Of a stretch of 64,000 nucleotides of DNA, positions 32,592 to 52,800 are shown piece after piece. The notes under the pieces are model-generated. The model made no database searches. It was not told the DNA's origin and saw only the letters and a list, made by a program, of their open reading frames with translations. The translations under genes were made by a program, and so were the position numbers. The stretch is from the IMG/VR virus record IMGVR_UViG_3300032524_000070; one strand, given 5' to 3'. Position 1 is the stretch's first letter; the number at the start of each line of letters is the position of its first letter. The stretch is from a virus.

Positions 32592-32593
32592 CC

Positions 32594-32625
32594 CGGTATC
32601 CAGCCTATGAGGCACGGAAGATGAG
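32594..32625 (+). promoter_or_regulatory. Putative late-promoter motif copy 3
   Basis: CGGT-ATCCA-GCCTATGaggcacggaaGATGAG. Confidence 0.6.
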
Positions 32626-32652
32626 CAACCGGCCTGACCCCGGGAGGAGCTG

Positions 32653-32853
32653 ATGCCCCAGTACAGCGAGCAGATGAAGCGACAGCGGCAACAGGTCAAG
32701 ATGGGCCTGGCGTTGCAGTACGCCGATGCTCCCCTTCGAGCAAAGAAGGGCACCTTCATCTTCGACATGAAGGACGCGGAGACGGGCGAGCAGCTCGCCT
32801 ACTTTGAGAAGGACACCGAGAACCAGTCCAAGGAGCACGTTCGGGATGCGTAA
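32653..32853 (+). pseudogene. Orphaned original 5' end of the 33526 tail/baseplate gene, interrupted by an endonuclease insertion
   Basis: Strong RBS (GGAGGAG). KGTFIFDMKDAETGEQLA matches KGEFFFKMTDARSGRVLA at the start of 33526 (10/18 identical). Similarity stops at about 32814 and the ORF runs into the endonuclease RBS/start. Confidence 0.7.
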
Positions 32854-33529
32854 GGGCACCACCCACACGGAAGCGACGAAGGCAAGGCTCCGTGAAGCTC
32901 GAAGCCATCAGGTGCCGTGGAACAAGGGCGTCAAGACGGGGCCTCGACCGGCAGCCGTGCGTCAGAGGATCTCCGAGTCATTGATGGGGCACCCGGATCA
33001 TGTCCCCGTTGAGAAGAAGGCCACATGGAGACGGGCAATCTCGGAGTCCAAGAAGGGCCACGTTCAGTCAGATGATACTCGGCGCAAGCGGAGTGCCTCC
33101 ATGTCCCGGGCATACGCGGAGGGTCGGAAAACCGTCAAGCCAGCTTCCGGCTACGGGAAGGGTCGTCACTACGAGTCGCCGTTCCAGGGGTCAGTGTGGT
33201 TGCGGTCCACATCAGAAGTGCAGCGAGCCGAGGAATTGGATGCTGAGGGCGTGGTCTGGTTCTACGAGGTCCGTCGCTTCCCTGTTCGCATGGGGGATCG
33301 GGTTACGACCTACAGGCCGGATTTCTGGATCATCCCTGGTCTTGTTCGGGAAGACGTGCCCATCGATTACAGAGGTTTCCTCTTGTCGCTTCCTGTTGAA
33401 CGGGTTCGTGTCGAGGACGTGAAGGGGTGGTGGAAGCCCTCGCACAAGACCTTCCCGAAGATTCAGGCATTTCAGCAGCAGTACCCCGACATCCGATTCG
33501 AGATCGTCATTCGAGAGGGTCAGCGATGA
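32846..33529 (+). mobile_element. Free-standing homing endonuclease: NUMOD3-like repeats + PD-(D/E)XK nuclease
   Basis: AAGGAG RBS, ATG at 32846. HTEATKARL, PWNKG and KGHVQSDDTRRKRS are NUMOD3-like. LRSTSE...WFYE...TYRPDFWI...EDVKGW is a PD-(D/E)XK core. Lower GC3 than the flanking genes. Confidence 0.8.
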
Positions 33530-34083
33530 TCACGACCAAAGCCAAGGGCGAGTTCTTCTTCAAGATGACGGACGCCCGATCCGGGCGTGTTCTCGCTGAG
33601 TGGAATCAGCCCCAGGTCATCACCCTGGACGCAGGGATCGCCGGGGCTGCCCACTTCAAGGGTGACCTGACCGGCGGGTTGAAGATGCTGGCCATCGGGA
33701 CGGGTGCGACGGGCAACCTGCTCTCGCCGGACGCCCCGCAGAACACGCAGCGCAAGCTCAACAACGAGATCCAGCGCAAGGCGTTTTCGTCCACGACGTA
33801 CCGCACGGCAGAGGGTGTGGCGGTCAGCTATCGCACGCACATCGTTGACTTCACCACGACCTACGGCGAGGCCGAGGCGGTGGGTGCTCTCAACGAGATG
33901 GGGCTGCTGGTCCCGGCATCGATCAACCCTGCGACGCTGAACCCCATCAACAACGGGCCGTCCAACTACGACGCGAGCATCGACGTGGCCGGGCTGGACT
34001 TGATGGTCAACTACCTGACCTTTTCGGTAGTATCGAAACCAAGTACAGCGGTTTTGGCTATCACATGGAGGCTTACGCACTGA
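33526..34083 (+). CDS. Baseplate/tail-fibre attachment protein (tail-collar/DUF3751-like)
   Basis: ATGA overlap at 33526. VITLDAG...LAIGTG...KLNNEIQRK...FTTTYGEAEAVGALNEMGL...NYLTFSVVSKP...ITWRLT is a conserved myovirus baseplate/fibre-proximal family pattern. Confidence 0.75.
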   Translation: MITTKAKGEFFFKMTDARSGRVLAEWNQPQVITLDAGIAGAAHFKGDLTGGLKMLAIGTGATGNLLSPDAPQNTQRKLNNEIQRKAFSSTTYRTAEGVAVSYRTHIVDFTTTYGEAEAVGALNEMGLLVPASINPATLNPINNGPSNYDASIDVAGLDLMVNYLTFSVVSKPSTAVLAITWRLTH

Positions 34084-35105
34084 TGCTGGCCCCCCACTCG
34101 CCACACCCCAACCCAGAGAGTAAGGTAGTTGACCAGAACTACTTGAAGGGGGTTGGTATGCCTGGTGTGGTCAAGTGCCGGGTCTGCGGCATCGAGCGAC
34201 GACGGCTGGGGGCTCACATCAAGGCGTCCCACGGGATGACAGTGCCCGAGTACCAGTTGCAGTTTCCCGATGCAGCCGTGGAGGTCATCGGTAGTCGTGT
34301 GCGGTCTGCGGAATGTCGGGCCAAGCAGGCGACGGCTGCCAAGCGGCGGTGGGCTGACCCAGATGAGCGGGCTGCACAATCGGCTCGACTCAAAGATGCG
34401 GCCCCGTGGAAGGGCAAGAATCTCTCAGAGAGCCACAAGGCGGCGATCTCGGTGGGTGGATCTGGTGTCGCACATGACCTCACGGACGAGCGGCGAGCAG
34501 AACTAGCCGCCCGAGGTCGGCGGCTTCTGGTCAACAGCCGACAGCACCCGGACTATCGGCAGAAGCTCTCCGAGGGGCAAAGGCGGCGGCATGAGCGGGA
34601 GATCTGCGGTCTTGCGGACCCTGCCAATCAGCGCAAGAGCTACAACACCAGACTCAAGAACGGCACGCTCATCCCTCCCGGTGGGGGTCGCGGTATCACG
34701 GGCTTCCGCAAGGGTCTGTCGCACTACTGCCGAAGCACACTGGAGGCGAACTTCGCCCGCATCCTCGTTCACGAGAGGGTGCCCTACGAGTATGAGCCGA
34801 GGGTATTCATGCTGCCTGGTGGGGGCCGGTGGACACCGGATTTCCGGCTGCTCGCACCTCTCGGGGGTATCCCTGCTGGCTGGGTGGAAATGAAGGGCTG
34901 GCGACAGAAGGATGGCACCTTGCCGGGTGAAGCCTCTGCCAAGATCGCCGCCTTTGAGCAGATGACGGGGGAGGCTGTGTACGTCCTGGTGCAGAGCAGC
35001 CCTGAGTGGAAGGCCCTCACTGCGAAGTACGCTGGGCTGGTTCCGTGGGAGAGGCCCCGTTTCAACCTCAAGACTCATCCGGCCCTGTTCGGGAGGAAAG
35101 CCTGA
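34083..35105 (+). mobile_element. Free-standing homing endonuclease: C2H2 (MucR/Ros-like) Zn finger + NUMOD3 + PD-(D/E)XK
   Basis: VKCRVCG...LGAHIKASHGMTVPEY (Zn finger); PWKGKNLSESHKAAIS (NUMOD3-like); RSTLEANFARIL...YEYEP...WTPDF...WVEMKGW (nuclease). Start is either 34083 (TGATG) or 34158. Confidence 0.8.
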
Positions 35106-38100
35106 TGGCGGTCAAGGACCACACCAACCACTTCGACGCGCTTGAGTCGGCCCCTACCCCGGCCGACTTGCGAGTGCCGAACACCGTGTCCCGCTCGCCG
35201 GGGACTGGTGAGCGTGCCTTCATTGGTGTCGTCGCTGAGTCCGGCAAGCCGGTCCTCGACGCAGAGCTGAACCTGCACCAGAACGCTCAGTGGATGGAGG
35301 ACTACCTCCTTCGTCGCTGGCAGACCCCTTCGGGCTGGCTCCGGGGGCGCACACACCTCGATGCCTACTGCGACTGGAGCCTGGAGACGGCTCCTGCTGG
35401 CGTCACCGACGATTCTGGCCTCGTAGACCCCGGTGGCTCCGCAGGTTCGGCGGGCTCTGGTGGCTCTGGTGGCTCTGGTGGATCAGCGGGTGGTGGTGGC
35501 CCCCTCATCGCCGACGACGGGACGCTCCTGGACTCCGTGATTCTTCCGAGGCTCGAAGCCACGGTGGCCGGGCATCCGGTGGTGGTCGAGTACACGAACA
35601 CGAAGACGCCGGGCTACAACCTCATCGGCCTGACACCCGCGAAGATCTACGACGGCACGAACGCGACGGTGAAGCGCACCGACATGATCTTCCTGGAGGT
35701 CTGGCGGTCACTGGTGGCCCCCTCGCCCTTCGCCACGGGTCAGATCCAGATCGTTGCCTTCGCTTCCCTGATCGCTGGTGACCTTGTTCGCATCAACGGC
35801 ATCGCCCTGACGGCTGTGGCGGGGGCTCCGGGCCTCAACCAGTTCCAGATCGGTGCGAGCAACGACATCACGGCCACGAACATCGCCACGGCGATCAACC
35901 TGGTCGCCAACTCGTTCGACCTCATCGTGACGGCCCGTCCGACGACCAACGTGGTCCTCCTGACGGCTGACCTGCCCGGAGCTGGCGATGTCATCAGCCA
36001 GACGGGCAACTTCATCACCCTGTCCGTAACGGTCGCCACCGTGGGGGCTATGGTCGTCTCCGGGGCCACGCTGGTCGGGGGTGCTGACCGCCCGAACAAG
36101 CCGAGCAGCGAGCAGGACAAGATCTACCGGCACGGCAACGTGCTGTCCCCCAGCCCCGTCTGGCTCGACGACGAGATGGTCGATCCCATCATCGCGGTCG
36201 AGAGCAGCCAGCGCATCCAGCTCCACTACCGCATCCGCACGACGAGCGACGCCGAGGCCCTCAACTACAAGAAGCACCCGGACGGCTTCTCGAACCTCAT
36301 CGCAGGTGGTGGCCCGAACGACGCGGCCATCTTCGCGCAGGGCAACCGTGCCGTCCCGGTGTGGGCTGGCAACGGCGTGGACACCGTGTCCTACCCCTTC
36401 GTCCCCGCCGACAAGACGAGCACATGGCTCCAGTCCTCTGCCGTGTCCTTCGGCTGGGAAGACGACGGCCTGTACGTCGCGGGTGACGGGTCGGCAACCT
36501 CCGCAGCGAACCTCGGGGCCATCGACGGTTTCGTGTTCGCCATCCCCATCGCGTTCGTTCACCGGCACAACAACGTCAGCGACATGCTGGCGGGCTTCAA
36601 GGGCTTCGACCCGGAGAGCAACGCCAACGGTGCCCCGATGTACGCCCACACCGGCTACGTCGGCCCGCTGGGCAACATCCCGGCTGGTGACTCCGACCGC
36701 CCGGACGGCGAGTTCGCCAACGTCATCACGCAGCAGAACATCCTGGACCTCCGCAGGCACGTCGTCTTCCCCGGAGTGGACCTCGCGGCAGAGCTGAAGT
36801 ACCAGGTCCAGAGCCTCATGGATGGCAACCTGCGAACCTGGTCGGTGGACACCGCCAGCAAGCAGACCCTCGGTGGTGACTCCGGGGATGCCTCGACCCG
36901 TTACCTCATCTGCAACGAGGTCGGTCGCACGGAGTCCGAAGGTGCGACGCCCCCTCTGGCGGGTGAGAACACCGAGCGGGGCGAGCTGATCCGCAGCTAC
37001 GACCACATCTGCCGGAGGTTTGCTGACCAGCCCATCGTGGAACGGGTCGTCGTCGCCTTCTGGCCGGGTGACCGCAACGGAGCCCCCGTGGCTCCGGGTA
37101 CGGACAACCCCGGCAAGTACATCAGCCCCAAGGCTGGTGGTGGCACGATGACGGCCCTCTGGTACGAGGGCGACACGCTCAACCTCGACCTGGAGTTCCT
37201 CAACTCCACGACCCTCGGCGGCATGTTCGACAGCCGCCCGGGTGCGGGCACGGGTGGCGGCGGCTCCGGCACGGGCATCCCGGACCAGAACTTCCTTCAG
37301 TTCGCTCCGGCGGGCACGGTCATCACCGATGTCCTCAACGCCTGGCACGACGACGGCCACTACGACCAGGTGACCAACCAGAACGTGCAGCTCGGCATCA
37401 TCAAGGGCCTGGGCACGACGCACCTCCAGGTCACCATCGACGCCAACGACACGGTGACCACAGAGGGGCAGCCCATCGCCGGACCGAACATCGAGCACAA
37501 GATGGTCGGCTCGGACGTGGCTGGTGCTCCCCCGGTGGCTCCTGCGAACTTCGGTTCGCCTCGACGCATCTTCCTGGAGGTCGAGATCACCTACCCCATC
37601 GGGGTGGGGACGACCGACACCCCGGACCACGAGGTCATCCCGGACCTGGGCGTCTACACGGACAGCGTGCTGACGGTCACTGGCCCCGGCCCGCTCATCG
37701 AGAACGACGTGCTCCAGCGGCCCGCCGACTTCGAGAACCTGCTGGCAGCCCGCTACCGCAGTGGCTTCCGCGAGGTGCAGTCGGAGTACGTGGCGAACGA
37801 CACCATCAACCACGCGGCTCCTCTGGCTGGAACGGCCATCGGGGTGGCGACGGTCGAGCAGATCGTCTCGCTGGACCGCAGCACCTTGCGGTTCCCCCGC
37901 CGGGTGTGGAGCAACGACAATGGAACCGGGCTGTACGTCAACGACGTACCCGGAGCGGCAGTCCAGACGGTCGATGTCCCCAACTCGGAGCTGGGTTCTT
38001 CCAGCCGCCTCATCCAGCTCGCCGGGGGCGGGGGCATTCCCCTCTCGGGAGTGGGTCACACGCTCTGCGACATCCGGTACTTCGCACAGGACCCGATCCC

Positions 38101-38866
38101 GAACTACGGGGTCAACGGCGGCGGCTACCAGATTGCCTACTACTTCCGCTCCAACTCGCCGCAGACGGCGGGCACCAAGGAGGGCGACATCACCTCCACG
38201 GGCGACGGCACCTTGCCGACGACCTTGGTAGTGGAGCCTCTGCTCGCCAGCCCTAGCGTCTGGACCGGGCAGGTCGGGATGGGTGGTCACGAGCTGGCCT
38301 TCCCCTACGAGTCGCCTCTGGACCAGATCCCCATCAACGATGGGACGACGGTTCCGGCGGGCTCGCAGCAGATCAGCGGGACGACGGAGGAGTGGTACTT
38401 CGCAGCGACGGCAGAGGTCGCGCTCGACCACTTCGACGCGGATACCGGGTTGCTCAACCTGCACGCCTTCGTGCAGCAGGACATCCAGAACGACCAGGAG
38501 TTCGGCGGACCGGACAACGACAAGAAGCCCCGGAAGGATGCGGAGTTCAGGGCCTACTACCCGTTCGCGGATGACGAGTCCTACCGCCCCACCGTGTTCG
38601 CGCAGCCCTTGTTCGGGGCGACGCGGCACAAGTCGTTCACCCCGTTCCTGGCAAGGGCGACGGCTGACGTGCCCGGAGTCGCTGGTGGGCTCCTGTTCCG
38701 CAAGTCGGAGCTGCTGCTCATCGTCCTCTCGCGGTTCGCTGAGCTGGACGACGAGAACAACGTGCGGTTCATCGACCCGCAGAGCAGCAACAGGACGCTG
38801 GCGGCGGTCTACCGGACCCGCAACCTTCTTCTGACCGTGGGAGATCGCACATGCCTCGGAAGCTGA
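35105..38866 (+). CDS. Large virion protein (1253 aa), DUF4815-like N-terminus; paralog of 49804
   Basis: ATG at 35105 (TGATG overlap). GKPVLDAELNL, FLEVWR, HGNV, QLHYRIR, GAIDGFVFAIP and RPDG...ILDLRR are shared with 49804. Confidence 0.75.
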   Translation: MAVKDHTNHFDALESAPTPADLRVPNTVSRSPGTGERAFIGVVAESGKPVLDAELNLHQNAQWMEDYLLRRWQTPSGWLRGRTHLDAYCDWSLETAPAGVTDDSGLVDPGGSAGSAGSGGSGGSGGSAGGGGPLIADDGTLLDSVILPRLEATVAGHPVVVEYTNTKTPGYNLIGLTPAKIYDGTNATVKRTDMIFLEVWRSLVAPSPFATGQIQIVAFASLIAGDLVRINGIALTAVAGAPGLNQFQIGASNDITATNIATAINLVANSFDLIVTARPTTNVVLLTADLPGAGDVISQTGNFITLSVTVATVGAMVVSGATLVGGADRPNKPSSEQDKIYRHGNVLSPSPVWLDDEMVDPIIAVESSQRIQLHYRIRTTSDAEALNYKKHPDGFSNLIAGGGPNDAAIFAQGNRAVPVWAGNGVDTVSYPFVPADKTSTWLQSSAVSFGWEDDGLYVAGDGSATSAANLGAIDGFVFAIPIAFVHRHNNVSDMLAGFKGFDPESNANGAPMYAHTGYVGPLGNIPAGDSDRPDGEFANVITQQNILDLRRHVVFPGVDLAAELKYQVQSLMDGNLRTWSVDTASKQTLGGDSGDASTRYLICNEVGRTESEGATPPLAGENTERGELIRSYDHICRRFADQPIVERVVVAFWPGDRNGAPVAPGTDNPGKYISPKAGGGTMTALWYEGDTLNLDLEFLNSTTLGGMFDSRPGAGTGGGGSGTGIPDQNFLQFAPAGTVITDVLNAWHDDGHYDQVTNQNVQLGIIKGLGTTHLQVTIDANDTVTTEGQPIAGPNIEHKMVGSDVAGAPPVAPANFGSPRRIFLEVEITYPIGVGTTDTPDHEVIPDLGVYTDSVLTVTGPGPLIENDVLQRPADFENLLAARYRSGFREVQSEYVANDTINHAAPLAGTAIGVATVEQIVSLDRSTLRFPRRVWSNDNGTGLYVNDVPGAAVQTVDVPNSELGSSSRLIQLAGGGGIPLSGVGHTLCDIRYFAQDPIPNYGVNGGGYQIAYYFRSNSPQTAGTKEGDITSTGDGTLPTTLVVEPLLASPSVWTGQVGMGGHELAFPYESPLDQIPINDGTTVPAGSQQISGTTEEWYFAATAEVALDHFDADTGLLNLHAFVQQDIQNDQEFGGPDNDKKPRKDAEFRAYYPFADDESYRPTVFAQPLFGATRHKSFTPFLARATADVPGVAGGLLFRKSELLLIVLSRFAELDDENNVRFIDPQSSNRTLAAVYRTRNLLLTVGDRTCLGS
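35426..35500 (+). repeat. Gly/Ser low-complexity linker with (GGCTCTGGT)x3
   Basis: Encodes DPGGSAGSAGSGGSGGSGGSAGGGG. Confidence 0.8.
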
Positions 38867-41800
38867 ATCCCGGCACCCTGACGACGGGGCACGGCAAGGC
38901 GGCCCCTGACGAGATCGCCCTTCGTCCCGAACTGACGGGCGCAGGTCTGGCCGGTCCTGGGCCGAACATCGGGGAGATCCAGCAGACGATCCCCTCGCTG
39001 CCTGGTCAGCTCGCCGTGCAGTCGGTCATCGCCCACATCGACGACCCCAAGCAGGCCCACACCGCCTCGGCCATCGAGCACGACGGGCACCCGGACATCT
39101 TGTGGTCCACCAACGTCGAGGGGGCTCTGGACGAGCTGATCGGCACGGTGCTGAAGCGTCCGCCCATGCTCGGTGAGTGGTCGCCGGACACGACCTTCTC
39201 CGGCATCACGGACTGGGGCTCCTTGAAGCTCCGCGACGGTGGCCTGGAGAACTACGCTGCCCTGACGTTCACCGACGCCACGGTGCAGAACGACGCGAAC
39301 GTCTACCCCTACCTCCTCAGCGAGACGGGGCCGCCTCGGGACACAGAGTTCGCCGTCCCGATGACCGACCCCCGCACGGACCACCAGTTCAACTGGGGCA
39401 TGGACTCGCTCGGCGAGCCCGGCATGGGCTACGGGCGTGCCCACATGGGGGCCTACACCCGCGACGGCGGTGGGGCTGCTGTCCCACCCCTGCCCATCTT
39501 CCGCTCTGGAAGAATCTTCCCCCGTCCGGCAGCCTTCGATGCGACCACGGGCCGCAACGAGCGTGCCCCGGTGACCGTCTCCGGCAACATCTTCCCGGCC
39601 GACCGGGGAGTGCTGGCCCTCATCCACTTCGTCGTGCCCCGTGGTGCGAGCGTGGCTGCCTCGTTCCTGGCACAGCCACTTGTCTCCGACGAGACGGCCC
39701 ACCTGTCCACTCAGGGGCGGGTGGTCGCGGCCATTCTGCTCGGCAACGGCATCCTCGGCGACAAGTGCCACGGGGTCGATCCCTGTGCCGATGCCCACCT
39801 CTGCGACGGCGACCCCGGCGGCATCTTCGGCCCCGGTGTGGATGCAAGCGGCAACTACGACCCCTTCCAGTTCCCCGGCAGGGCGAGCGGTCAGTACGAC
39901 CTGCTGGAGCTGCACCTGGGCGTCAACTCTGCTGCACAGGCCCTCAAGGTCCCGTGGAACGACCTCGACGGCGACACGGTGGCAGGAGCCCAGCGGACGC
40001 CCACGGCAGTCATCCCGGCACCTGGTCAGGTACGCCTCGGCACCGACCCCGACGCAGCTCCCCTGCTCCCGGTGGTCCCGAACGGCATCCCCATCCTCGG
40101 CGGCACCGCTGCCTGCTTCACGGCTGTTATCGGAGCCCAGCCGGGCAGCTTGACCCTCCCCATCCTCGGGGATGCCGTCATCCGGTCATCGAACTTCTTC
40201 CGCTACCGCTTGCCGGTACTGAAGGACTACTCGCCTGCGACCGGGTTGAAGTGGACGCCCAGAGGCGAAGTTCCCACAACCACGTTCGAGACGAGCAGGT
40301 TCTTCGACGTGGCTACCCCCTCGTCTGCCACCTACGAGGACGGCACGCCAGTCGTAGGCGGCCTCCTGCGGTCGGCAGGGGTCTACGACGACTTCGACGA
40401 GGACTACTGGGTCTGGCAGATCGCCCGGTACCGGCAGACGTTCCTGATGCCCTCCATCGCGGCGAACAACGTCCGCGACGAGGCGGGCACCTACATGCTC
40501 GTCCACTTCAAGCGGGAGACGGATTTCGAGTCCTTCGTCCGCGATGCTGTCTTCCCGTGGGACACCCCGGTCCCCTACGAGGTCTACGGAGCGTCCATCG
40601 TGGATGCCCCCGAGGACATCGACAACCTGGCGAACGACTGGCCCGCAGCGACGGTCCCGGTGGCCCCGAACGGTCCGGCTCCGGCCTACGGCTACGCCGC
40701 GAATCCGTGGCACAACATCCGCAACCGCATCTTCATGGACCCGAATGGGGTGAACCTCCCGGGGGTCACTTCGGACACCCTGACGTGGACCTCTGCCTCT
40801 GCTCCGGGTGGCGGGACAGAAGAGGTCGTCTGGGTGTCGGGCATCGCCTACTTCACGCCCCGCGACATCACCACAGGAGCACCCAGCGTTCGGATCACCG
40901 AATGCGACATCACCCTCGCAGCAGGCTTCTGGAGTTCGTACCGCACGGACTACGCCGACCTGGAGACGTGGCCGACCATCGGCCCGGCTGTAGTGGCTTC
41001 GCAGAACCCGGCGATGGTGGCAACGGCTCCGTGGGGCTACGGCCCCGATGGTGGGCTGGCGAGTTCCCTGACCGTCCCGGTGAACCCGAACCCGGCCATC
41101 GGCTTCATCCCGGCCACGACCTACCAGGATCAGTTCCGGCTCGAAGTACCGTTCACGCACCTGGGCGGCAACGTCGGCGGGGCCTTCACCGACGCCAACG
41201 CCCCGCTGGACGCCGATCCCCTGGTGCTGGCCCTGCCCTCCCCCATCGAGCTGCTGGGTGACAACCTCGACCCGTCCTTCTCCAGCAACGCGGTCGTGCG
41301 AGTCCACTTCCGCCGTCCGCTCAACCACATCGCCGCCAACTCCACGAACCTGCCGCACACGGCGGCGGACGGTCACGGCTACCTCTTGACCCACACCGAC
41401 GCAGGCACGGTGCTGCTGCACACGACCCGGTGGGACGCTGCGAACAGGGTCGGGGACTACGGCAACTTCCTGGTCGGCGGTGCTGGGGCCATCGAGTTCA
41501 ACACGCCTCTCAAGGACTACACCGAGAGGTTCCTGGACGAGGGCCATCGCTACGTCGCCGATGCCCCGGCGGGCATCAACGGCACCGGCCCCTACACGGC
41601 AGCCACCATCGCGGCCCTCGATGGCCCCGGCATGGGTGGATGGGCTGGTGGTCCGGTAGAGACCCCGGTGCGTGTCTCGCTGGCGAACGCTCCGTGGAGC
41701 GGGTCCTCGTGGTTGCTGCAAGGACACCACCTCCTCGACCTGTCGGGGGCGACCCTGAGCCACGACGCTCTCCAGGTGGCTGGGCTGCCTGACCGGAACC

Positions 41801-42546: not shown

Positions 42547-42548
42547 TG

Positions 42549-42580
42549 CGGTGGGGAGCCTATAGCCACGCAGAGGCAGA
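42549..42580 (+). promoter_or_regulatory. Putative late-promoter motif copy 4
   Basis: CGGT-GGGGA-GCCTATAgccacgcagaGGCAGA. Confidence 0.55.
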
Positions 42581-42594
42581 CGGAGTGAAGTCTG

Positions 42595-45500
42595 ATGGCT
42601 GATTACCCACTGACGAAGCTGGAGAAGGCGCTCGCCCGCCGGGCGTCGTCGTCAGCGTCGAAGCCCGCATGGCAAGAGCTGATGGAGCGGTACGACACCG
42701 TGCCGTCATCCAAGTCGGTCCAGGCCCCCGATGCCATCACGGGCTTCAGCGGCTCGTGGGCCGCCAGCTACGACCTGGGTGGCTCGCTGCGGGACATGAC
42801 GGTCGGGGAGAGCCCCGCGCAGATCCAGCGACGCACGAACTTGCTGGGCCAGCCCGGCATGGGCGAGATCAACTTCCGCCCCTACGACCACGGCACCAAC
42901 CGGCACGGCAAGTACGGCCCCAGCCTCCTCGGCCACCCCATCTCCTTCCAGGTGGTCGGCCCGACCGCGAAGACCCGTGGGCTGGTCCACCAGTGGTTCA
43001 TCACCGAGGCGGGCAACGTCGATACGTTGAACCTCGACGTGGGCGCGGACATCAACTCGAAGTCCATCACTCCGAGCCCCCTCCCGGCGGGTGCGGACAC
43101 CATCGGGGAGATCTACGGCTTCACGGCGATCCCGGAGGGTGGGCTCTACATCGTCGTCACGATGACGGGCTCTGAGGGCGTCGTCACCGACAACGGTGCG
43201 TTTGCCCCCGGCACGGATGGTGGGCTCGGCGATGGGTTCATCGGTGAGGACGATGGGGGTGCCCCCATCGGAGCGGGTGCCCGTCTGGCGGTCATCCCCC
43301 GCACGGAGTCGGTGAAGTACGAGATCTTCCGCGTCACGGCCATGACGCCGACGACTCTGGTGCTCGACAACGCCAAGCGGCTGTCCACCTACTTCGACTA
43401 CAACATCGGAGCGAACGCCCCGGTCATCCGGGCCATCACCATCATCCGGCCCGCAGCGACGCGACTGGTGGCGGTCCCCGGTTCCGGCAGCGTGCAGGGG
43501 GGCGAGCAGACGTTCGCCTTCGTGCCCCCGGTGACGGCCCTCAACGCGGACTGGCAGCCCGTCTACGCATCGGCCACTGGCACAGGTCTCTTTGACCCGT
43601 GGACCAGTGCCAAGAACCTGGACACGAACCCCGCGTGGGGCTTCGCAGCCGACGCCAAGGACTACGGCCAGGCGGTCGTGCTCCCGATTCCGGCCCCCGT
43701 CAACCGAGGACAGGGACGGCTCCAGGGCATCAACGGGGAGGCCCCACAGCAGCTCCCACTCGGTCGTTTCCGTCTCATCCTGGATGCGGCGAGCTACTTC
43801 GGCAGCACGCTCGACATCGGCAAGATCATCCGCATCTATGACATCCGGCGAGTGCTGGATGGTGACTGGGAGACCATCGCGTCCGCTCCGGCGACCCATC
43901 GGGGTCGGCCCCTCCTGGATCGGATGCTCGGCTACTTCGAGATCTTCAACACAGGCAACGCCGATCAGGGCGTCGGGGCGAACAACTTCTACGACCTGAA
44001 GTTCGTCTCGCAGGTTGATCCCGACACGGGCGTCCCCTTCTTCGGTGCTGGCACGAACTTCGTGATGGCGACTGGCAGTGGAGCCGGACAGGAAGTCCGG
44101 TTCCAGTGGACGGTCCATGAGCCCATCTCGACTCTGTGGACTGACCGCTACCTGCACCCGACCCGGCTTGACTCAGCCCGGCTGAAGAACCTCATCGACC
44201 CCCGCTGGGTCAAGCCGACCTTGAAGGGTCGGGAACTGACCGACATGGCCGGTCACCAGGCGATGCCTGACCGGGCCATCTTCGATACGAGTTCGAGCAG
44301 TGCTGGTGTTGCGGGCGGCAACGCGAATCCGGGCAACCTGCTGGACCTCGGTTTCCGGGTGGTCTTGTTCCCCGCCAAGGTCATCGGAGCCCCTACGACA
44401 TCCCTGGTGCCGGACTTCGACAACCCCATCGACGCGAATGAGGTGGTCCTCGACCCGACGAAGCTGGATGAGAACCAGTTCATCGAGGTGGACTACTCCG
44501 CAGGGCTCGTTCACCTGTCCCACCCGCCCGTGGTGGGCAGCCAGCTCGTCCCGCTCGCAGGAATCCTGACGGCGGACGACAACCCCCGTGGCGAGGCCGT
44601 GTTCTTCGCTGCCTGCGTGCCCTTCAGCCGCGAGCCCGGCCAGATGGGCGTGAACCCTCGTCTGACGGCGGGACGAAGCCTTGACCGTGCGGGGAGCTTC
44701 TGTGGGCTGGACAGCCCGGAGCCCGTGGATGTCTACGGTGGTCGCATCTTCTGGCCGGGAGACAACCAGACGATCAACAGCGGGCCACAGCGCACCATCC
44801 AGTTGAACGTGGAGCTGGGTCCCATCGACCTGCCCTTGACGGGCTTCGTGGACGTGCTGATCGGGGATCACAACCCGGCGGGCGATCCCCTCTTCTCCAA
44901 CTCCGATGAGGAACGGCTCTGCACCTTCGGCTACAGCACCGTCAACTACAACGACGTGGGCCACGGTGGTCGGACGACCCTGGAGGGGACGTTCGGCGGT
45001 GGTGACCAGACGGGTCCGGCGAGCTACGTCGTCGTGCCTGCCACCACCCCGGTCACGGTGGTCCTCCGCAAGAACATCGTCCTGCCGAACACCCTGGACG
45101 GCCGCACTGGCACCGACTACCAGTTCGACACGACCTACGGCTACGCCAAGCGGCCTGCAACGCTGCGCTTCACGCATGGCGATCTGACCCCTGAGCACGA
45201 CGGCTCGGTCAGCATCTCGACGAAGGACCCCCGCACGGACGCCCACGAGGCGCTCTTCAGCGAGCTGTTCTCGTCCTGGTGCATCAGCGGTGGCATCAAC
45301 TCGACGGTTCTGCCGTCCGTTGGAGCGACGCTGCACTTCAGCGAGGCGGTCGTGCTCATCCAGGGCATCCGCACCGTCATGCCCGAGCAGGACTTGGTGC
45401 TCGGTGTGGTGGCTGGCCCTCCGGCGTCCCGGTACGTCTACATCGACGGCAGCACCCCGGCTTGCCCGGTCTGGGCCAGCACGACTGTACTGCCCCTGCC

Positions 45501-48195
45501 CACCGACAACGACGTGCTCATGGCGTCGTACACGCACGCAGGCGGGAACATCCAGACGCTCATCGACCTCCGCGACCCGCTCGTGGACATCGACAAGCGG
45601 CTGGAAGTCACGGTCGGCAACCCTTCGGGGCATGGCCAGCCGGGAGACGCGCACTTCAACGAGCTGGCCGATGCCGTCGCGTTCGTGACGGAGACCTACC
45701 GGGCCTTCCAGGTCTCGGGCGCACCGGGCGAAGAGGGTCGGGCTCGCCGCATCAAGGTCATCGGGCCGACGCGGGAGGACAACGCCAAGCTCCCCATCTC
45801 GCCAGCCGGTCTCAGTGGGGTCATCATCGAGGGTGCCGCCCGGACGCCGGACGACACCGCCGCGAACCCCCTGTCGATCACCTGGGAGGGGGCAGCGGCT
45901 CCCCCGCTGTTCGACCTCTCGGATGTATCTGGCTGGACGTTCCGGGATCTGGCCTTCCGCTTCGTGGACTCGGCGGCTTCGGCGGTGGTGCCGGAACGCT
46001 GCCTGTTCATCACGAGGGATGGCCCGACTCGGAACTGCATCTTCGAGAACATCTACCTTCTCGGGAAGGCCCACGGCTTCTACTACATCGACGACACTGC
46101 CGTCCCTGGCAGTGCCGCCTACGACAACCTGCTGTTCCGCAACTGCGCTGCCACGGAGCTGACCGACTTCGCCATCCGGGTCGAGAACAACATCGACGCG
46201 GCCAACGCCGACGTGATGAAGGTCGAGGGCTGCGACTTCACGGTGGCCAAGGGAGCTGGCCGCGAGCTGAACGGGACGATCACCGATGGTGGCATCGTCC
46301 ACGTCGGGACGACCAACGCCGAGCGGACCAGCATCCGGGACAGCAGGCTCATTGGCGGCAACGTCGGCATGTTCTCTGCTGGTGTCGGCAACGTCATCGA
46401 CGGCTGCCTCATCCAGAACACCGACCTCCCGGCGATCTGGGCGAAGTCGGACTTCTGGGAGATCAACAACAACGACATCGTGGCCGCCCACACCGTCAAG
46501 GGCACGTCCGGGCCGTTGAACCCCGCCAAGGTGGCCCTCTACATCGACGCGGGTGGTGCTGGACAGAACGAAGTCCACGTCATCAACAACCGGGTCGATG
46601 TCAGCGGTGGTGCAGCGGGCGACCGGGCCATCTTCAGCGACGGCAACACCTTCAACTGCATCTTCTCCGGCAACAGCGTCGATTTCGACATCATGGCTGC
46701 GACGGCAGTTCACATCCTCGACAACGACATCGCGGTAGGCGATCTGTCGTTCGATGCCAGTTGCACCGTCCGGGGCAACGCCGTGGTCGGAGACATGATC
46801 CCCCTGGGGACCCTGGCCAACATCTCCAACAACAACGTGGCCGGTCTGCTGCTGGGCATCCTTGGGACGAACTGCCGCTACAGCAACAACAACTTCCTGA
46901 GCAGCACCGCCACCGACCATGTGGTCGCCAACGGGAGCAGCTTCAACGGCGACTGGTTCGGGGACCAGGCATCGGCTGGTGGTCGGGTCGAGCTGGCGAA
47001 CGACTGCACCTTCATCGGGTGCCGCTTCTCTGATGCCGTGGATGGTGTGACGAAGTTGCCTTCCCGGAACCGTTTCGAGGCGTGCGTGTTCGATATGTAC
47101 GCCACCGGCTTCCAGGTAAGGGGTGGCTCAAACTCCTTCCTTGGCAACGCCTTCAACGACCGGACGGCGGGTCCAGTCCTCAATCTTGAGATCAACATCA
47201 AGGGTGAGGGGACGGTCTTCTCGGACAACAAGTGCTCCATCGGCACCTTGTCGCTGGAGCCCGAAGCGGGTGAGAACCAGCGGTTCGTGGTGACCGGCAA
47301 CCAGTTCTTCGTCCCTGACATCAACGTGGGCGGCATGTGGATTCAGGGCGGCTACAGCGTGGTCAGCGACAACGTGGTGGTCGGCTGGGAGAGCGAGAGC
47401 GCCGACCCCGACAAGTTCTCCATCTTTGTCGAGGGGAACCAGAACGTCGTCAACGGCAATCTCTGTACCAAGAGCCTTCAGGTGAAGGGTGCCCAGTGTA
47501 CGGCGGTGGGGAACCGGGTCTTGATCAACGCCGTCGTCGCGTTGACCGATGGCAAGTTCGACTCGAACCACGTCCAGGGCGATGTGCTCATCGGTGGTGG
47601 GGCAGCGGCCAGCATCCAGTTCAACAGCAACCGGATCGCGGGCGACGTGGACTACCTGACGCCCGCGACCGACTCCCTGATCTCCAGTTCGTTCAACGAC
47701 AACCGCATCGTCGGTACGACCACCCTGGCCGTAGCGGCTGGTGTGTCCATCGTGGACAGCACGATCTCGGGCAACAGGTTCGGCAACGACTTCGCGGCCA
47801 CCCAGAGCGACGACTGCACCTTCGTAGGGAACCGCTGCACCGGCAGCGTGAATCTCACCAACTCGGTGGGGCTGGTCTGCAACAACAACCGCATCGGCAA
47901 GGGTGGGGCGACGAAGAACCTCATCCTCACCACCTGTGCCGACTACATCTGCAACGGCAACTACGTCGAGGGCAGCATCCTGGTGGACGCCAACACTAGC
48001 GGGACAGGCGTGGGCATCCTGGTCGGCAACCGAGCGGCGGTCATCTCGTCGGACAACGCTCCGCTCGCAGGTCAGGTTGCTGTCGGCAACCGGACGACCG
48101 TCAACGGGGTCACCCCGTCGCTCTTCAACACGAACACGGGCGTCGTCGCCGACATCGGCGTTACCGTGCCCTCGAACTTGAACACCGAGGTCTAG
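42595..48195 (+). CDS. Tailspike-like protein (1866 aa) with long C-terminal right-handed beta-helix
   Basis: The last ~800 aa are dense in I/V-x-G-N, NN and CTF.GNR repeats (pectin-lyase fold). They are preceded by the AHFNELADAVAF cap motif. Confidence 0.75.
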   Translation: MADYPLTKLEKALARRASSSASKPAWQELMERYDTVPSSKSVQAPDAITGFSGSWAASYDLGGSLRDMTVGESPAQIQRRTNLLGQPGMGEINFRPYDHGTNRHGKYGPSLLGHPISFQVVGPTAKTRGLVHQWFITEAGNVDTLNLDVGADINSKSITPSPLPAGADTIGEIYGFTAIPEGGLYIVVTMTGSEGVVTDNGAFAPGTDGGLGDGFIGEDDGGAPIGAGARLAVIPRTESVKYEIFRVTAMTPTTLVLDNAKRLSTYFDYNIGANAPVIRAITIIRPAATRLVAVPGSGSVQGGEQTFAFVPPVTALNADWQPVYASATGTGLFDPWTSAKNLDTNPAWGFAADAKDYGQAVVLPIPAPVNRGQGRLQGINGEAPQQLPLGRFRLILDAASYFGSTLDIGKIIRIYDIRRVLDGDWETIASAPATHRGRPLLDRMLGYFEIFNTGNADQGVGANNFYDLKFVSQVDPDTGVPFFGAGTNFVMATGSGAGQEVRFQWTVHEPISTLWTDRYLHPTRLDSARLKNLIDPRWVKPTLKGRELTDMAGHQAMPDRAIFDTSSSSAGVAGGNANPGNLLDLGFRVVLFPAKVIGAPTTSLVPDFDNPIDANEVVLDPTKLDENQFIEVDYSAGLVHLSHPPVVGSQLVPLAGILTADDNPRGEAVFFAACVPFSREPGQMGVNPRLTAGRSLDRAGSFCGLDSPEPVDVYGGRIFWPGDNQTINSGPQRTIQLNVELGPIDLPLTGFVDVLIGDHNPAGDPLFSNSDEERLCTFGYSTVNYNDVGHGGRTTLEGTFGGGDQTGPASYVVVPATTPVTVVLRKNIVLPNTLDGRTGTDYQFDTTYGYAKRPATLRFTHGDLTPEHDGSVSISTKDPRTDAHEALFSELFSSWCISGGINSTVLPSVGATLHFSEAVVLIQGIRTVMPEQDLVLGVVAGPPASRYVYIDGSTPACPVWASTTVLPLPTDNDVLMASYTHAGGNIQTLIDLRDPLVDIDKRLEVTVGNPSGHGQPGDAHFNELADAVAFVTETYRAFQVSGAPGEEGRARRIKVIGPTREDNAKLPISPAGLSGVIIEGAARTPDDTAANPLSITWEGAAAPPLFDLSDVSGWTFRDLAFRFVDSAASAVVPERCLFITRDGPTRNCIFENIYLLGKAHGFYYIDDTAVPGSAAYDNLLFRNCAATELTDFAIRVENNIDAANADVMKVEGCDFTVAKGAGRELNGTITDGGIVHVGTTNAERTSIRDSRLIGGNVGMFSAGVGNVIDGCLIQNTDLPAIWAKSDFWEINNNDIVAAHTVKGTSGPLNPAKVALYIDAGGAGQNEVHVINNRVDVSGGAAGDRAIFSDGNTFNCIFSGNSVDFDIMAATAVHILDNDIAVGDLSFDASCTVRGNAVVGDMIPLGTLANISNNNVAGLLLGILGTNCRYSNNNFLSSTATDHVVANGSSFNGDWFGDQASAGGRVELANDCTFIGCRFSDAVDGVTKLPSRNRFEACVFDMYATGFQVRGGSNSFLGNAFNDRTAGPVLNLEINIKGEGTVFSDNKCSIGTLSLEPEAGENQRFVVTGNQFFVPDINVGGMWIQGGYSVVSDNVVVGWESESADPDKFSIFVEGNQNVVNGNLCTKSLQVKGAQCTAVGNRVLINAVVALTDGKFDSNHVQGDVLIGGGAAASIQFNSNRIAGDVDYLTPATDSLISSSFNDNRIVGTTTLAVAAGVSIVDSTISGNRFGNDFAATQSDDCTFVGNRCTGSVNLTNSVGLVCNNNRIGKGGATKNLILTTCADYICNGNYVEGSILVDANTSGTGVGILVGNRAAVISSDNAPLAGQVAVGNRTTVNGVTPSLFNTNTGVVADIGVTVPSNLNTEV

Positions 48196-48199
48196 CCAG

Positions 48200-49033
48200 A
48201 TGAGAATCCTCGTTGACCTGCGAAGCCACCTGTCGGATGCACCGGAGATCATCCAGGTGCAGCGGGTTCCCGTGGAAGGCTCCGCTGGTGGCGAGACCAT
48301 CAACGGGAAGTACGCCCTCCCGGTCCCGTTGAACATGGAGTTCCCCATCGACGGGACGAACTACATCCTCGACGGGGCGGGGAACATCGACGGCGGCGAC
48401 GTGGTGAGCATGGGCTACGCCCACCTCCTGGCTCTCTACCTGCCCTTCGAGAACATCTACTTCAACCCGCTGCTGACCAGCGACCATGTAGGCGAGCTGG
48501 TCCTCGACCAGTCCTTCCACTTCACCGACCGCAGCGTCTCGCCCCCCGTCCAGTTCTTCCCCCGGTTCCAGACGGGCCGCGAGGAGGGCGTCGCCGACGA
48601 CGGTCAGATGCCCACGCACACGGCGATGATGCCCGCGAACGACACGGTGACCCCGGAGCGGCCAGGGCTCATCATCACGGAGCCCATTGACATCGGGCCG
48701 TTCACGCTCGACTGCGACGACGTGCCAGTGGGTGCCGACGAGTTCATGGTCTTCTGGAAGCTCTACAACTTCACGGTCGGCCAGGATGTCGCGGCTGATG
48801 CAGGACTGCTGGCGGGCACGAACGCCCCGGCGGCACGGCTGCTGGAGGAGACGCCCCAGGAGCCGGACGACCTCTCGGTCTTCATCAGCACCGACAATGG
48901 CGCGAACTGGTGTCAAGTCGGCCTGTTGGAGCCCATCGCCTTCTGCGACAAGACGACATCGGTGCGACTGGCGTTCATGAACGACTCGCTCACGAACAAG
49001 CTCTTCCTCGCCAGCTTCGCGCTGCTGTTCTGA
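48200..49033 (+). CDS. Acidic virion-associated hypothetical protein (277 aa)
   Basis: High GC3 ORF in the structural cluster; VFISTDNGANW (Asp-box-like) near the C-terminus. Confidence 0.65.
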   Translation: MRILVDLRSHLSDAPEIIQVQRVPVEGSAGGETINGKYALPVPLNMEFPIDGTNYILDGAGNIDGGDVVSMGYAHLLALYLPFENIYFNPLLTSDHVGELVLDQSFHFTDRSVSPPVQFFPRFQTGREEGVADDGQMPTHTAMMPANDTVTPERPGLIITEPIDIGPFTLDCDDVPVGADEFMVFWKLYNFTVGQDVAADAGLLAGTNAPAARLLEETPQEPDDLSVFISTDNGANWCQVGLLEPIAFCDKTTSVRLAFMNDSLTNKLFLASFALLF

Positions 49034-49043
49034 AGGTAGGAAA

Positions 49044-49814
49044 ATGGCACTCGACCACGGACAACTACGCCGCATCTCCGCCGCCGCTGACAAGCGGCGG
49101 TCGGTGGAGCGTCGTGCCGCCGTGGGTCGGATGAAGGAGAAGCCCTGTGCAGACTGCGAGACGGCCTATCCTTTCTTCGTCATGGACTTCGACCACCGGG
49201 ACCCGAGCACCAAGGATTTCACCATCAGCAGGGTGGTGACCCGGCTGGCATGGGACAAGCTCGTGGCCGAGATCGAGAAGTGCGATGTCGTATGCGTCAA
49301 CTGCCACCGTTTGCGAACGTGGGCACCGCCCACGAACCGGTCGGCCCGGCAGCGACTTCTGATTGACCTCAAGGCGACCCCCTGTGCGGATTGCAAGGGG
49401 GAGTTCCACTACTGCCAGATGGACTTCGACCACGTTCGGGGTGAAAAGCTCGGTCAGGTGCCCAAGAGGGGCACCGCACAGGCCATCAAGGCTGAGGCCG
49501 CCAAGTGCGATGTGGTCTGCGCGAATTGCCATCGAGTGCGTTCACAGGCCGCCGCCAAGGGGTCTGCCCGGTTGGTTCCTGCGGACATCGACATGGTGTG
49601 GAAGCAGCGCAGTAGCAAGACTCCGCAGACGAAGCTGCGGAAGACCACACGGCCTTGGCACAGCCTCGCCGGAATGATGCCGGATGGTGCTCTTGCAGCC
49701 CGCCACGGGATCACCCGGAACGCCATCAGGAACTACCGGAAAAAGATGAAGATCGAACCGTTCACACGCCAGGGCGTGCGACCCGATCTCAAGGAGGTGC
49801 GCTGTGGCGCTTGA
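49044..49814 (+). mobile_element. Tandem double-HNH endonuclease with C-terminal HTH, fused to the captured start of the downstream gene
   Basis: Two copies of PCADC...MDFDH...KCDVVC.NCHR.R, then a C-terminal DGALAARHGITRNAIRNYRKK (HTH). Begins MALDHG like 49804. Confidence 0.85.
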
Positions 49815-52800
49815 TCATGGAACTGGCGTCTCTCGGACCTTGAGCCCTCTCGACAGGGCTTACGCTTCGGTCATCTGGCAGAAGGGCAAGCCGCCCCTCG
49901 ACGCAGAGCTGAACCTCATGTCCTCGCTGGACCAGGAGCGGCTGCGGGAGTACGTCGCGGGCCTGATGCCCTCCGGGTTCTTGATGGACCCGACCCGCTC
50001 CGAGTTCGACTTCCGGTTCGACCCCAAGTGGGTCAACCACTTCCACCTCGGCGTGCCTCGGTCTGCCACGGGCAGCCTCGACGCAGACGAGACGCAGCCG
50101 GTCGTGTGGGCCAACGTCAACGGCTGGATGGTCCCGGTCGCTGGAACGGACATCACGGGCACGGCTGATGTCCACAACGTCGTCAAGCTCTACCCCGCCC
50201 CCGGCTCCGATACCCGCGTGGACTTCGTGTTCCTGGAGGTCTGGAACTCCCTGGTCCAGCCGAATCCCTCGACGCTGAACAAGCCCACGGCTTCGACCGT
50301 CTGGAAGTACGGCAACGTCAAGCACGGCGGCACGAACATCACGGACGACCTCGAAGATCCGACCATCGGCTTCGAGACCAGCAAGCGAGTACAGGTCCAG
50401 TACCGCATCCGCGTCTACGGACAGGGCCTCGGCGGTGGGGCCAGCGTGAACCTCGCTGTCCACCCGGACGGCTTCGGTGACCCGAACATCCTCGGTCGGG
50501 GGGCCAACGCGAGTGCCCCCGTCGCCGGGATGCAGTGGGCCAACATGCGAGAGCAGCTCGGTGACCCCTCCCTGTGGCGAGCAGGCGACGGCGACCCGAA
50601 CAACGCTCTGGGCACCATCGACGGCTACACCTACGCCATCCCGATCTGCGCGGTCTTCCGCCGGAGCCGGGAGACCTACGTCGCCATCAAGACCAGCGGC
50701 AACCCCACGCAGAACGGGGCGACCCTCCGCACGCCGGGCGTCTACCTGCTGGTCGATCCCCTGACGGGTGCCGTGCCCCTGCTCCAGGCGTCGCTCGGGG
50801 CGGCTCTGGGGCCGGACGACGGCAAGCTGGCCCCCTTCACCATCGCGGTCACGAACATCAACGGCTCCGGGCTGGAAGACACGGCCCACACGCTGTCGAG
50901 CATCTACCTCCAGATCGAGGATGAGATCGTCGGCATCTCGGCGGTGGACCTGGTGGGCAACACCATCACCATCCCGGCAGGTGGCCGTGGGCGGTGGGGT
51001 ACGGCTGCTGTGGGGCACGCGACGGCGACCCCCATCAACCAGTTCAACACCCGCCCGGACGGCCTGTACGCCGACCAGGTGGCCTCTCAGGACGTGCTGG
51101 ACCTCCGCAGGGCGGTGAACCCGGGCGACTGGGACTACAACCGTCTGCTGGCCCACAACGTCGCAGCTCTGGCCAAGGGCACCCTCCGTACCGCGTGGAA
51201 GGAGAGCAACCCCGGTGACACAGAGGGTCCGGTCGTCCATGAAGTCGTGGACATGTACGCCGGGGACGAGACGCACCCGAACCACACCGACGCGGCGGAC
51301 GGCTCTGATGGCATCCGCACGGTCTGGTCGGATGGGGCGACCATCCAGTCGGACGTGACGCTCCTCCTCAAGCACGACGCCACCCGCGACGCGGACGGCA
51401 TGGTCGGCTTCACGAACACCGGCTTCGATGCCCTGGTCGAGTGGGATGTGGGGGCGAGCTTCAACCCCATCGGTTTCTTGAACACGGGCGGCCTGGCGAC
51501 GGGCTGGTACAACGGCTCGTCGGTCCACCTGTTCATCGGCGGGACCACGGGCGAGCTGGGTGCAAGGGCGACCTTCCGTGCCGCCAACGTGCGGGACGTG
51601 CGCTTCGTCACACCGGGCGAATACTGGAAGACGGGTTACCCGGTCGTGGACCCGACCACGGGCAACCAGCACCCGGTATCCCTCCGGTTCCTGGGCGAGA
51701 AGAGCACGGTGGCACCGCCGTCTGCTCTGGCCGCAGCCGACAAGCTCATCGCCCCCGGCCCGCAGTACCCGTGGCGGGAGGGGTCGTTCGAGCGACCCTT
51801 CATCGTGCTGGGTGGCCTGCTCCACAGCAACCTGCGGATCACTGCTCTCGATGTCAGCAACCTGACTTCGGCGGTCGATGTCTACGGCACGACCCGCTAC
51901 TACCTCGACCTGACGGGCAAGGGCTTCGACTTCGACGCGGCTGGTGGGTTCAACAACGCCAGCGGTGGCGTCTTCCCGAACGACCCCGCGCAGGTGGCGA
52001 CTCCGTTCCTGCGGGGTGAGCGCACCTTCTTCGGGATGCTGACCGACGACGGTCGGGACCAGACGGGGGCCTCCTCTGAGGTCTACCTGATGACCTTCGG
52101 TGACCCCACGGGCCGCAACAACAACGGTGCCTTCCGGGTCATCGGTGCCGGGACGGTGGGCTACACCAACGTCCCTGGCATCAACGCCGGGACGCTGGTG
52201 CTGGAGCCGCTTTCGGGGGACTTCACCGGCTGGTCGGCCACGGGCTCGGGCAACGAGATCACGGTCGATTTCCGGTCGCAGTACCACAACGCGGACGACA
52301 TCTCGACCTACGCAGCTCGCATCGCCGACCTGGCCATCGTGCTGACCGACATCGGTGGCGAGTCTGGTGACGGAACGCCGTGGGACCTGGCGAACGTCGG
52401 GACCAACGCTCTGGATCAGGCGGGCGGCTTCTACTACGCCCCGAGCAAGATGGTCCTCTCGACCACGCTGCTCTACCACCCCGGTCGGTCAGCGGCGACG
52501 CGAGTGCCGGACGAGTTCGTGCGGTTCGCCATGCGGGGCGGTTCGGAAGAAACGCTCGGGACGTACCTGCGACGGTCGCCGTCGAGCATCGACACGACCT
52601 TCTCGGCCATCGGGACGGCAACAGACGAGACGTACTGGCCGACCATCCACGTCGGCACGTGGAACAGGCTCTCCGGCCTCGGCTGGCACGCCCCCCTCGC
52701 ACCGGCCTACGGCGGCTCCGTGGTGGGCTTCACAGAGCAGGACCGCGAAGCTGAGTGCTTCGTGGACCGTGGCAGCAAGACGGCCATCTTCCGTCCGTTC

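Follow-up and report, generated by a model that had tools for sequence, protein, structure and literature searches.

The stretch of DNA analysed here, 64,000 nucleotides of the IMG/VR virus record IMGVR_UViG_3300032524_000070 (the window), carries within a cluster of very large genes three nuclease genes, each of which is located at the end of a host gene. Two of them, nuc1 and nuc2, lie at the 5′ and 3′ ends of gene 33526, and the third, an HNH gene, lies at the 5′ end of gene 49804 (Table 1). It was originally predicted that three unrelated endonucleases had each replaced the end of a virion gene with a recoded copy, and the duplicated and/or recoded gene ends described beside the three nucleases were all found in place.

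Table 1. Features at the three nuclease junctions of the window and blastn matches to the closest relative.
Feature	Window positions	Strand	Remarks
66-aa stub open reading frame (ORF)	32653-32853	+	same gene call in L040
Native 5′ stub of gene 33526, codons 1-54	32653..32814	+	resident ribosome-binding site (RBS) and ATG; 98% aa identity to L003 N-terminus
nuc1 cassette left end	32815..32853	+	12 unrelated codons and TAA; L003 homology ends at 32815
nuc1 insert relative to closest relative	32816-~33612		
nuc1, 227 aa	32846-33529	+	
Host gene 33526, 185 aa	33526-34083	+	
Cassette-borne replacement 5′ end of gene 33526	33526..33612	+	new ATG overlaps nuc1 stop (ATGA)
Native core of gene 33526	33613..34022	+	96.3% nt identical to L003
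nuc2 insert relative to closest relative	34023-35103		
Recoded 3′ end of gene 33526, last 20 codons and stop	34023..34083	+	nuc2 cassette left end
nuc2, 340 aa	34083-35105	+	
1253-aa gene	35105-38866		
277-aa gene	48200-49033		
Native start of gene 49804, ATG and 5 codons (MALDHG)	49044..49061	+	identical to L017; opens HNH ORF
HNH, 256 aa	49044-49814	+	
HNH insert relative to closest relative	49062-49821		
HNH cassette right end	49791..49821	+	AAGGAGG RBS, GTG start, and five recoded codons; overlaps HNH stop
Host gene 49804, 2082 aa	49804-56052	+	conserved in related huge phages
blastn match to L003 5255-6070	32000-32815		
blastn match to L003 5992-6479	33533-34022		
blastn match to L003 6550-7043	35104-35600		
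blastn match to L017 2961-4018	48001-49061		
blastn match to L017 4002-4797	49805-50600		

In the closest relative, a single IMG/VR contig (L003 at gene 33526 and L017 at gene 49804), all three nuclease sites are empty and the genes are intact, with ends of high G+C content at third codon positions (GC3), as had been expected of relatives without the nucleases. The borders of the inserts against this contig are sharp, and such presence or absence at an identical site, together with precise empty sites, is one of the features by which free-standing homing endonucleases are recognised. Further alleles were obtained by protein-guided scans of IMG/VR, in which gene 33526 was found at 14 loci and gene 49804 at 11, while a DNA search against 50,697 phage records returned nothing useful. 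Misassembly or chimerism is unlikely because the region was also assembled independently in Logan (L040), with 100% identity over 6,288 nt and matching gene calls.

At the 5′ end of gene 33526, the L003 allele is a single uninterrupted gene of 210 aa, whereas the gene in the window is truly split. The stub ORF upstream of nuc1 is the true N-terminus of the gene 33526 family (codons 29-54 are identical to L003 at 77/78 nt) and persists as a separate ORF. The left end of the cassette contains AAGGAG at 32830-32835, and the ATG of nuc1 (32846) overlaps the stub stop. Downstream of nuc1, the gene restarts with an ATG and 28 codons that are the counterpart of native codons 27-56; just 40/78 nt of the restart codons at 33535-33612 are identical to L003, and near-identity returns thereafter. 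It had been proposed that each nuclease rebuilds the terminus of its host gene, which does not apply to nuc1: the restarted product lacks ~26 conserved N-terminal residues and the stub stands apart, so that the gene is divided in two. Exactly this arrangement recurs in the low-GC contig L028, where a stub, a nuc1 homologue (54% identity), and a restart at the same codon are accompanied by the same stop/start overlaps and the same duplicated 5′ end. In addition, an Asn at the border, found in every one of the 15 uninterrupted alleles, is replaced by Gln in the two copies linked to nuc1 (the window and L028). The L028 stub is intact, and its ratio of nonsynonymous to synonymous substitution rates (dN/dS) against L011 is ~0.08 with dS saturated. 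The split product of gene 33526 presumably still works. For the uninterrupted host protein of 210 aa, an AlphaFold model built from 15 sequences was unusable, with a predicted local distance difference test (pLDDT) score of 38.

At the 3′ end of the same gene, the nuc2 insert stands in for 70 bp of L003, comprising the last 20 codons and the spacer. The 61-nt tail that it brings is 55.7% identical to L003, as compared with 96.3% for the gene core, and differs at 27/61 positions and in 3/20 residues. GC3 of these last 20 codons is 0.45 vs 0.90 in the core, and the sliding GC3 check suggested with the original prediction placed the tail in the lowest 0.14% of 16,890 sliding 20-codon windows across the cluster. 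In the empty high-GC alleles of L003 and L006, tail GC3 is 0.95-1.00. Among the loci that carry nuc2 (the window, L007, L014, L031, L033, and L035), tail GC3 is 0.06-0.45 below that of the core, a drop not shared by 12 loci without nuc2; the difference between tail and core is lower in these 6 loci than in those 12 (Mann-Whitney p=0.0012). Moreover, a conserved Arg is encoded by AGG/AGA in 5/6 tails with nuc2 vs 1/12 without it (Fisher p=0.004), and this codon gives a GGAG(G/A) motif ~11 nt ahead of the nuc2 ATG (GGAGG at 34067-34071 in the window). The ATG of nuc2 overlaps the stop of gene 33526 (TGATG), and the stop of nuc2 overlaps the ATG of the next gene. Homologues of nuc2 were found at the same site in L007, L014, L031, L033, L035, and L041; the family has 72 close homologues, and all those examined directly follow a homologue of gene 33526. 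It is the comparative evidence, rather than GC3 alone, that carries the case, because other low-GC3 windows exist in the cluster, the remaining outliers being Gly/Ser linkers.

These linkers (GGSAGSAGS...) are located at 31779-31878 and 35387-35524, in both giant genes flanking the 33526 locus, and cross-match by blastn (35435-35499 to L003 5043-5107). Other genes were also observed around the nuc2 site. A 485-kb uncultured phage (LR745208.1; L001:6637-7983) has a PIN-PhoH ATPase gene at the nuc2 position, and at L014:7402-8304 and L035:4831-5589, extra ORFs of 250-300 aa, for which no Pfam match was obtained, separate the nuc2 homologue from the giant gene that follows.

At the third junction, the HNH ORF stands behind the native RBS and opens with the first six codons of gene 49804, joined to it in frame. 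Upstream of 49044, 40 bases match L017 exactly, and blastn homology runs to 49061. At the other end of the insert, the host gene starts anew with GTG GCG CTT GAT CAT GGA in place of the native ATG GCA CTC GAC CAC GGA, so that 5 of 18 nt differ, each change being synonymous or part of the start codon; over the following 796 nt, identity is 94.6%. The CTT-GA created by the recoding is the stop of the HNH gene. HNH homologues (52-77% identity) open with a host-derived M-x-L-D-(H/Y/F)-G, and in L037 and L039 the HNH gene lies at the same site with a duplicated, diverged start. In L020 (3217-4011), a LAGLIDADG gene (Pfam 1.8e-6) occupies the HNH site before the 49804-family gene and overlaps the host start by 11 nt; GC3 of this host gene is 0.48 in the first 22 codons vs 0.90 in the remainder. 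The start of the 49804-family gene seems to be a preferred site, or hotspot, at which endonucleases of several families insert.

All three nucleases could be assigned to homing-endonuclease families, as had been claimed, by PHROG match for HNH and by profile, fold, and motifs for the two PD-(D/E)XK proteins. The HNH protein matches phrog_3106 (3.9e-44). The nuc1 protein has a NUMOD3 motif (Pfam 5.6e-7) and matches phrog_945 and phrog_22215, the latter of which is also matched by nuc2, and the two proteins have RS..E, PDF, and (D/E)xK motifs in common. The nuc2 family profile (42 sequences) matched the Ros zinc finger (8.4e-6) and T7 endonuclease I (4.2e-4), and its E / PD / (D/E)xK catalytic motifs align with T7 endonuclease I (1m0d); E221, P252, and F254 are invariant, and E269 is present in at least 90% of the 42 sequences. 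In an AlphaFold 2 model of nuc2 (pLDDT 86), residues 202-326 match PD-(D/E)XK nucleases (TnsA, Z 6.8; I-Bth0305I, Z 5.9; Vsr; Hjc) and residues 26-73 align with Ros, which gives a layout of a Ros/MucR zinc finger, helical repeats, and a T7-endonuclease-I-like PD-(D/E)XK domain. This fold assignment draws on the consistency of the hit list and on the profile alignment, the VIA-align Z scores being middling and the full-length Foldseek E-values weak; single-sequence PDB searches of all three nucleases gave no match. Judged by these profiles and motifs, nuc1 and nuc2 are distant homologues with a T7-endonuclease-I-like catalytic domain and NUMOD3-type modules, and the three enzymes can no longer be called unrelated.

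I-Ssp6803I is a homing endonuclease of the PD-(D/E)XK type. The enzymes described here differ from T7 endonuclease I and the PD-(D/E)XK homing enzymes by their modular DNA-binding parts, an N-terminal Ros-type zinc finger and NUMOD3-like repeats, and they are free-standing rather than intron-encoded; no role at Holliday junctions is implied by the likeness to T7 endonuclease I. The nuclease ORFs have a GC3 0.08-0.25 below that of their neighbours in every genome examined (from 0.23 vs 0.41 to 0.76 vs 0.94), and for nuc1 the values are 0.70 vs 0.87-0.90 in host genes, which is typical of mobile, weakly adapted genes. The HNH protein was also seen to contain two tandem C-x2-C ... DFDH ... C-x2-CH modules.

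On the evidence of the nuclease families, insert borders, empty sites, diverged ends, and recurrence elsewhere, the three inserts are probably free-standing homing-endonuclease cassettes, each with a replacement gene end, in the tail/baseplate cluster of a huge, megaphage-type phage. The proposed target of each enzyme is a conserved motif in the coding sequence at the extreme terminus of a conserved gene, the genes of the operon being separated by only ~10 bp; alleles without the cassette would be cut, and recombinational repair would copy the cassette into them. With the insertion point or target inside coding sequence, the mobile unit would include a diverged copy of the gene end. This copy would keep the host gene translatable, take the intact target out of the carrier genome, and embed the translation signals of the nuclease itself, while the divergence of the repeat copies would prevent recombinational loss of the insert. 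The conserved terminal motifs of empty alleles are thus the putative cleavage sites, and the recoded ends are predicted to be immune to cleavage. The original prediction was borne out in that each insert carries a diverged replacement end (40/78 nt identical for nuc1, 56% identity for nuc2, and 5/18 changes for HNH, against L003/L017). In addition, the cassettes recur at the same sites in other huge phages (nuc1 in L028, HNH in L037/L039, and nuc2 in seven loci). The use of the resident RBS was found for HNH, which takes the native RBS and start codon, but not for nuc1 and nuc2, each of which has a Shine-Dalgarno sequence of its own in the cassette, with stop/start coupling to the ORF before it.

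Several observations weigh against this reading. The target sites are putative, deduced from insert borders and conservation. The ends are diverged as predicted, but part of the recoding is explained by translation signals that serve nuclease expression rather than by immunity, i.e., GGAG(G/A) 11 nt before the nuc2 ATG and the stop of the HNH gene. Similarly, the recoded start of gene 49804, for which 9 of 22 A/T-ending codons had been cited, is confined to the first 18 nt, since the low GC3 of codons 7-22 is common to relatives without HNH (0.71-0.76). At the nuc2 site, L004/L005 lack the nuclease yet have a window-like tail (74% identity vs 56% for L003), in which CCA AGT ... GTT TTG GCT (6480-6540) is shared with nuc2-linked tails and the Arg codon is CGG, not AGG. 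A recoded end in relatives without the nuclease therefore occurs in part, with L004/L005 partly recoded and L003 and L006 of high GC3; by their sequence, L004/L005 would fit as candidate resistant empty alleles in a homing cycle. Moreover, nuc2 identity tracks host-gene identity across loci, and therefore long residence with patchy absence is implied; long vertical residence of nuc2 with occasional loss would fit as well as repeated gain, and gain and loss are equally compatible with the comparison of the window and L003, as with any single pair. The status of the host genes as virion genes and as essential is presumptive, suggested by a nearby baseplate-wedge match and by conservation. On the whole, the original interpretation is supported in part, and the comparative data largely favour it.

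The main rival reading, less probable and indeed rather unlikely, is that the inserts are homing cassettes whose diverged ends are passive, i.e., co-converted donor flank drifting AT-ward, with immunity arising from interruption of the target. The cassette-borne 5′ segment of gene 33526 would accord with such an origin, as it agrees at 13/24 positions with L011, at 14/24 with the L028 stub, and at 10/24 with its own stub, as would the 3′ tail of the window, which resembles the tails of other loci with nuc2 (74% to L031). The nuclease ORFs are richer in A+T at third codon positions than their hosts everywhere, and the A/T-rich ends may share the composition of the cassette; flank co-conversion itself is established for T4 seg/mob genes (PMC2988022). 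A passive flank does not account well for the HNH junction, where the native junction would be regenerated base for base if the right copy were not recoded, and where the changes are concentrated in the 18 duplicated bases (5/18 vs ~5% nearby), likewise in L037. Nor would it be expected that the residue right at the border, Asn in all 15 empty alleles, is Gln in the two copies linked to nuc1.

A much weaker case can be made that the nucleases are ordinary resident phage genes, serving for instance in DNA processing or competition, ancestral to the clade and deleted in some relatives, with the odd ends resulting from overlapping translation signals. The divergence of nuc2 does parallel that of its host gene, nuc2 is widespread at a single site, and the AGG/AGA Shine-Dalgarno sequence lies within the tail. 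However, deletion would not bring back an uninterrupted 210-aa gene whose N-terminus is of the native type, nor the high-GC3 tail common to L003 and L006, and the 27/61 differences in the tail far exceed the needs of a Shine-Dalgarno sequence. In addition, nuc1 and HNH are flanked by duplicated, diverged gene ends, and two different families, HNH and LAGLIDADG, occupy one site, so that this explanation is very improbable. An assembly artefact, a strain chimera, or transposon target-site duplications, which a metagenomic source and direct repeats flanking two inserts might suggest, can scarcely be credited given the identical independent assembly, the same architecture in unrelated samples (L028, L037, and L039), and repeats that differ in length (18-24 nt and ~80 nt), are coding and in frame, and diverge mainly at synonymous sites.

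Introns and inteins were also rejected, in agreement with the original prediction. Rfam gave no match at E<=1 over 32000-50500, which excludes a group I or group II intron, and an intein or split intein has no room at the split of gene 33526, where 12 extra residues are found on the stub and 6 on the restart before homology resumes; in L028 the restarted gene is read in another frame than the stub. In the fractured gene with a split intein described by Dassa et al. 2009 (PMC2677866), intein halves are located at the ends of the pieces, and none are present here.

The closest precedent is the gene hybrids formed by mobile ORFs (mORFs) in fungal mitochondria, which bring a foreign C-terminus to atp6 of Allomyces macrogynus and to atp6, atp9, cox2, and nad3 of Glomus (PMC3630166). 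As in those elements, an endonuclease ORF is inserted at a gene end together with a diverged in-frame copy of that end, so that a hybrid gene results; most differences between the copies are synonymous, and the site is empty in related genomes. In contrast, the host here is a phage, with stop/start coupling between the ORFs and with enzymes of the PD-(D/E)XK and HNH families rather than LAGLIDADG or GIY-YIG, a LAGLIDADG gene having been found only in the relative L020. Whereas the mitochondrial elements act at the 3′ end, two of the three cassettes replace a 5′ end and supply a start codon and RBS. For nuc1 (32653-32814) and HNH (49044-61), the native end is kept as a duplicate, the mirror image of the mORF arrangement, while nuc2, unlike mORFs, replaces the native end without a duplicate, and L003 6480-6549 has no counterpart in the window.

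A second point of comparison is the T4-type seg/mob genes, free-standing endonucleases capable of intronless homing, for which the following draws on a section of PMC2988022. The cassettes share with them a location between genes or at gene ends within operons, a target in the neighbouring gene, flank co-conversion, a patchy distribution, and ORF overlap with the upstream gene that suggests translational coupling. They differ from the seg/mob genes as described in that section by the duplicated replacement gene end and the new host start codon, and nuc1 and nuc2 belong to another enzyme family. Genes split by endonuclease insertion are given in the same section (Aeh1 nrdA/mobE, T4 gene 39/60 with mobA, and phage 25 gene 43), and nuc1 similarly divides one gene into two ORFs flanking the endonuclease. 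Unlike the pieces of those genes as presented there, the two pieces of gene 33526 overlap by ~28 homologous, diverged codons, and the downstream piece may be functional by itself despite the loss of the first ~26 residues. In the literature searched, no report was found of endonuclease-borne replacement gene ends in a phage, nor of the 5′ version, in which a start codon and RBS are newly supplied; such ends are known from fungal mitochondria and are apparently undescribed in phages within that literature.

More tentatively, gene-end-replacement cassettes might be a general way of life, not described so far, for free-standing homing endonucleases of huge phages, with PD-(D/E)XK, HNH, and LAGLIDADG enzymes converging on the termini of conserved genes in the virion cluster and each bringing a replacement start or stop region that includes its own translation signals. 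This broader view is at present only a possibility. If it were true, split or N-terminally remodelled structural proteins would arise, gene termini would move between phages, and an immune recoded end could act as a linked marker in the competition of co-infecting phages. Apart from this broader view, the three cassettes illustrate how selfish nucleases can enter tight phage operons without introns or inteins, by carrying along the displaced piece of the host gene, including its start codon, RBS, or stop region. The putative natural targets of a modular T7-endonuclease-I-like family can be read from empty alleles, making its members candidate new site-specific nucleases, and natural occupied, empty, and possibly empty-resistant alleles are at hand for tests of the homing cycle in uncultured megaphages. 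For annotation, short stubs and truncated structural genes beside nucleases are to be taken as real split genes rather than as errors.

With regard to its setting, the window has a composition of ~66% G+C, and its plus strand bears a run of genes encoding 3709, 2139, 1253, 1231, 1866, and 2082 aa. One giant gene of the cluster matches a baseplate wedge family (phrog_6, 6e-24), the sole baseplate-wedge match in the cluster; five giant neighbours gave no PHROG match. Gene 33526 is a member of phrog_5417 (5e-15), the family of Bacillus phage G gp190; its relatives include gp190 of this 497-kb phage and a gene of the 485-kb uncultured phage, and its homologues occur on contigs of up to 528 kb. The region is accordingly taken as the tail/baseplate region of a huge phage because of the giant genes, the wedge match, the phage G-type relatives, and the large contigs. 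The product of gene 49804 is 98% identical in aa sequence to that of L017 over the first 350 residues, and homologues are present in 11 viral contigs. Elsewhere in the cluster, a ~790-bp stretch (47019-47811) that encodes part of the 1866-aa product close to its C-terminus has no blastn match in L017, with flanks that are 83-85% identical to L017 and GC3 that stays high across it; this stretch may be a hypervariable, possibly receptor-binding, module.

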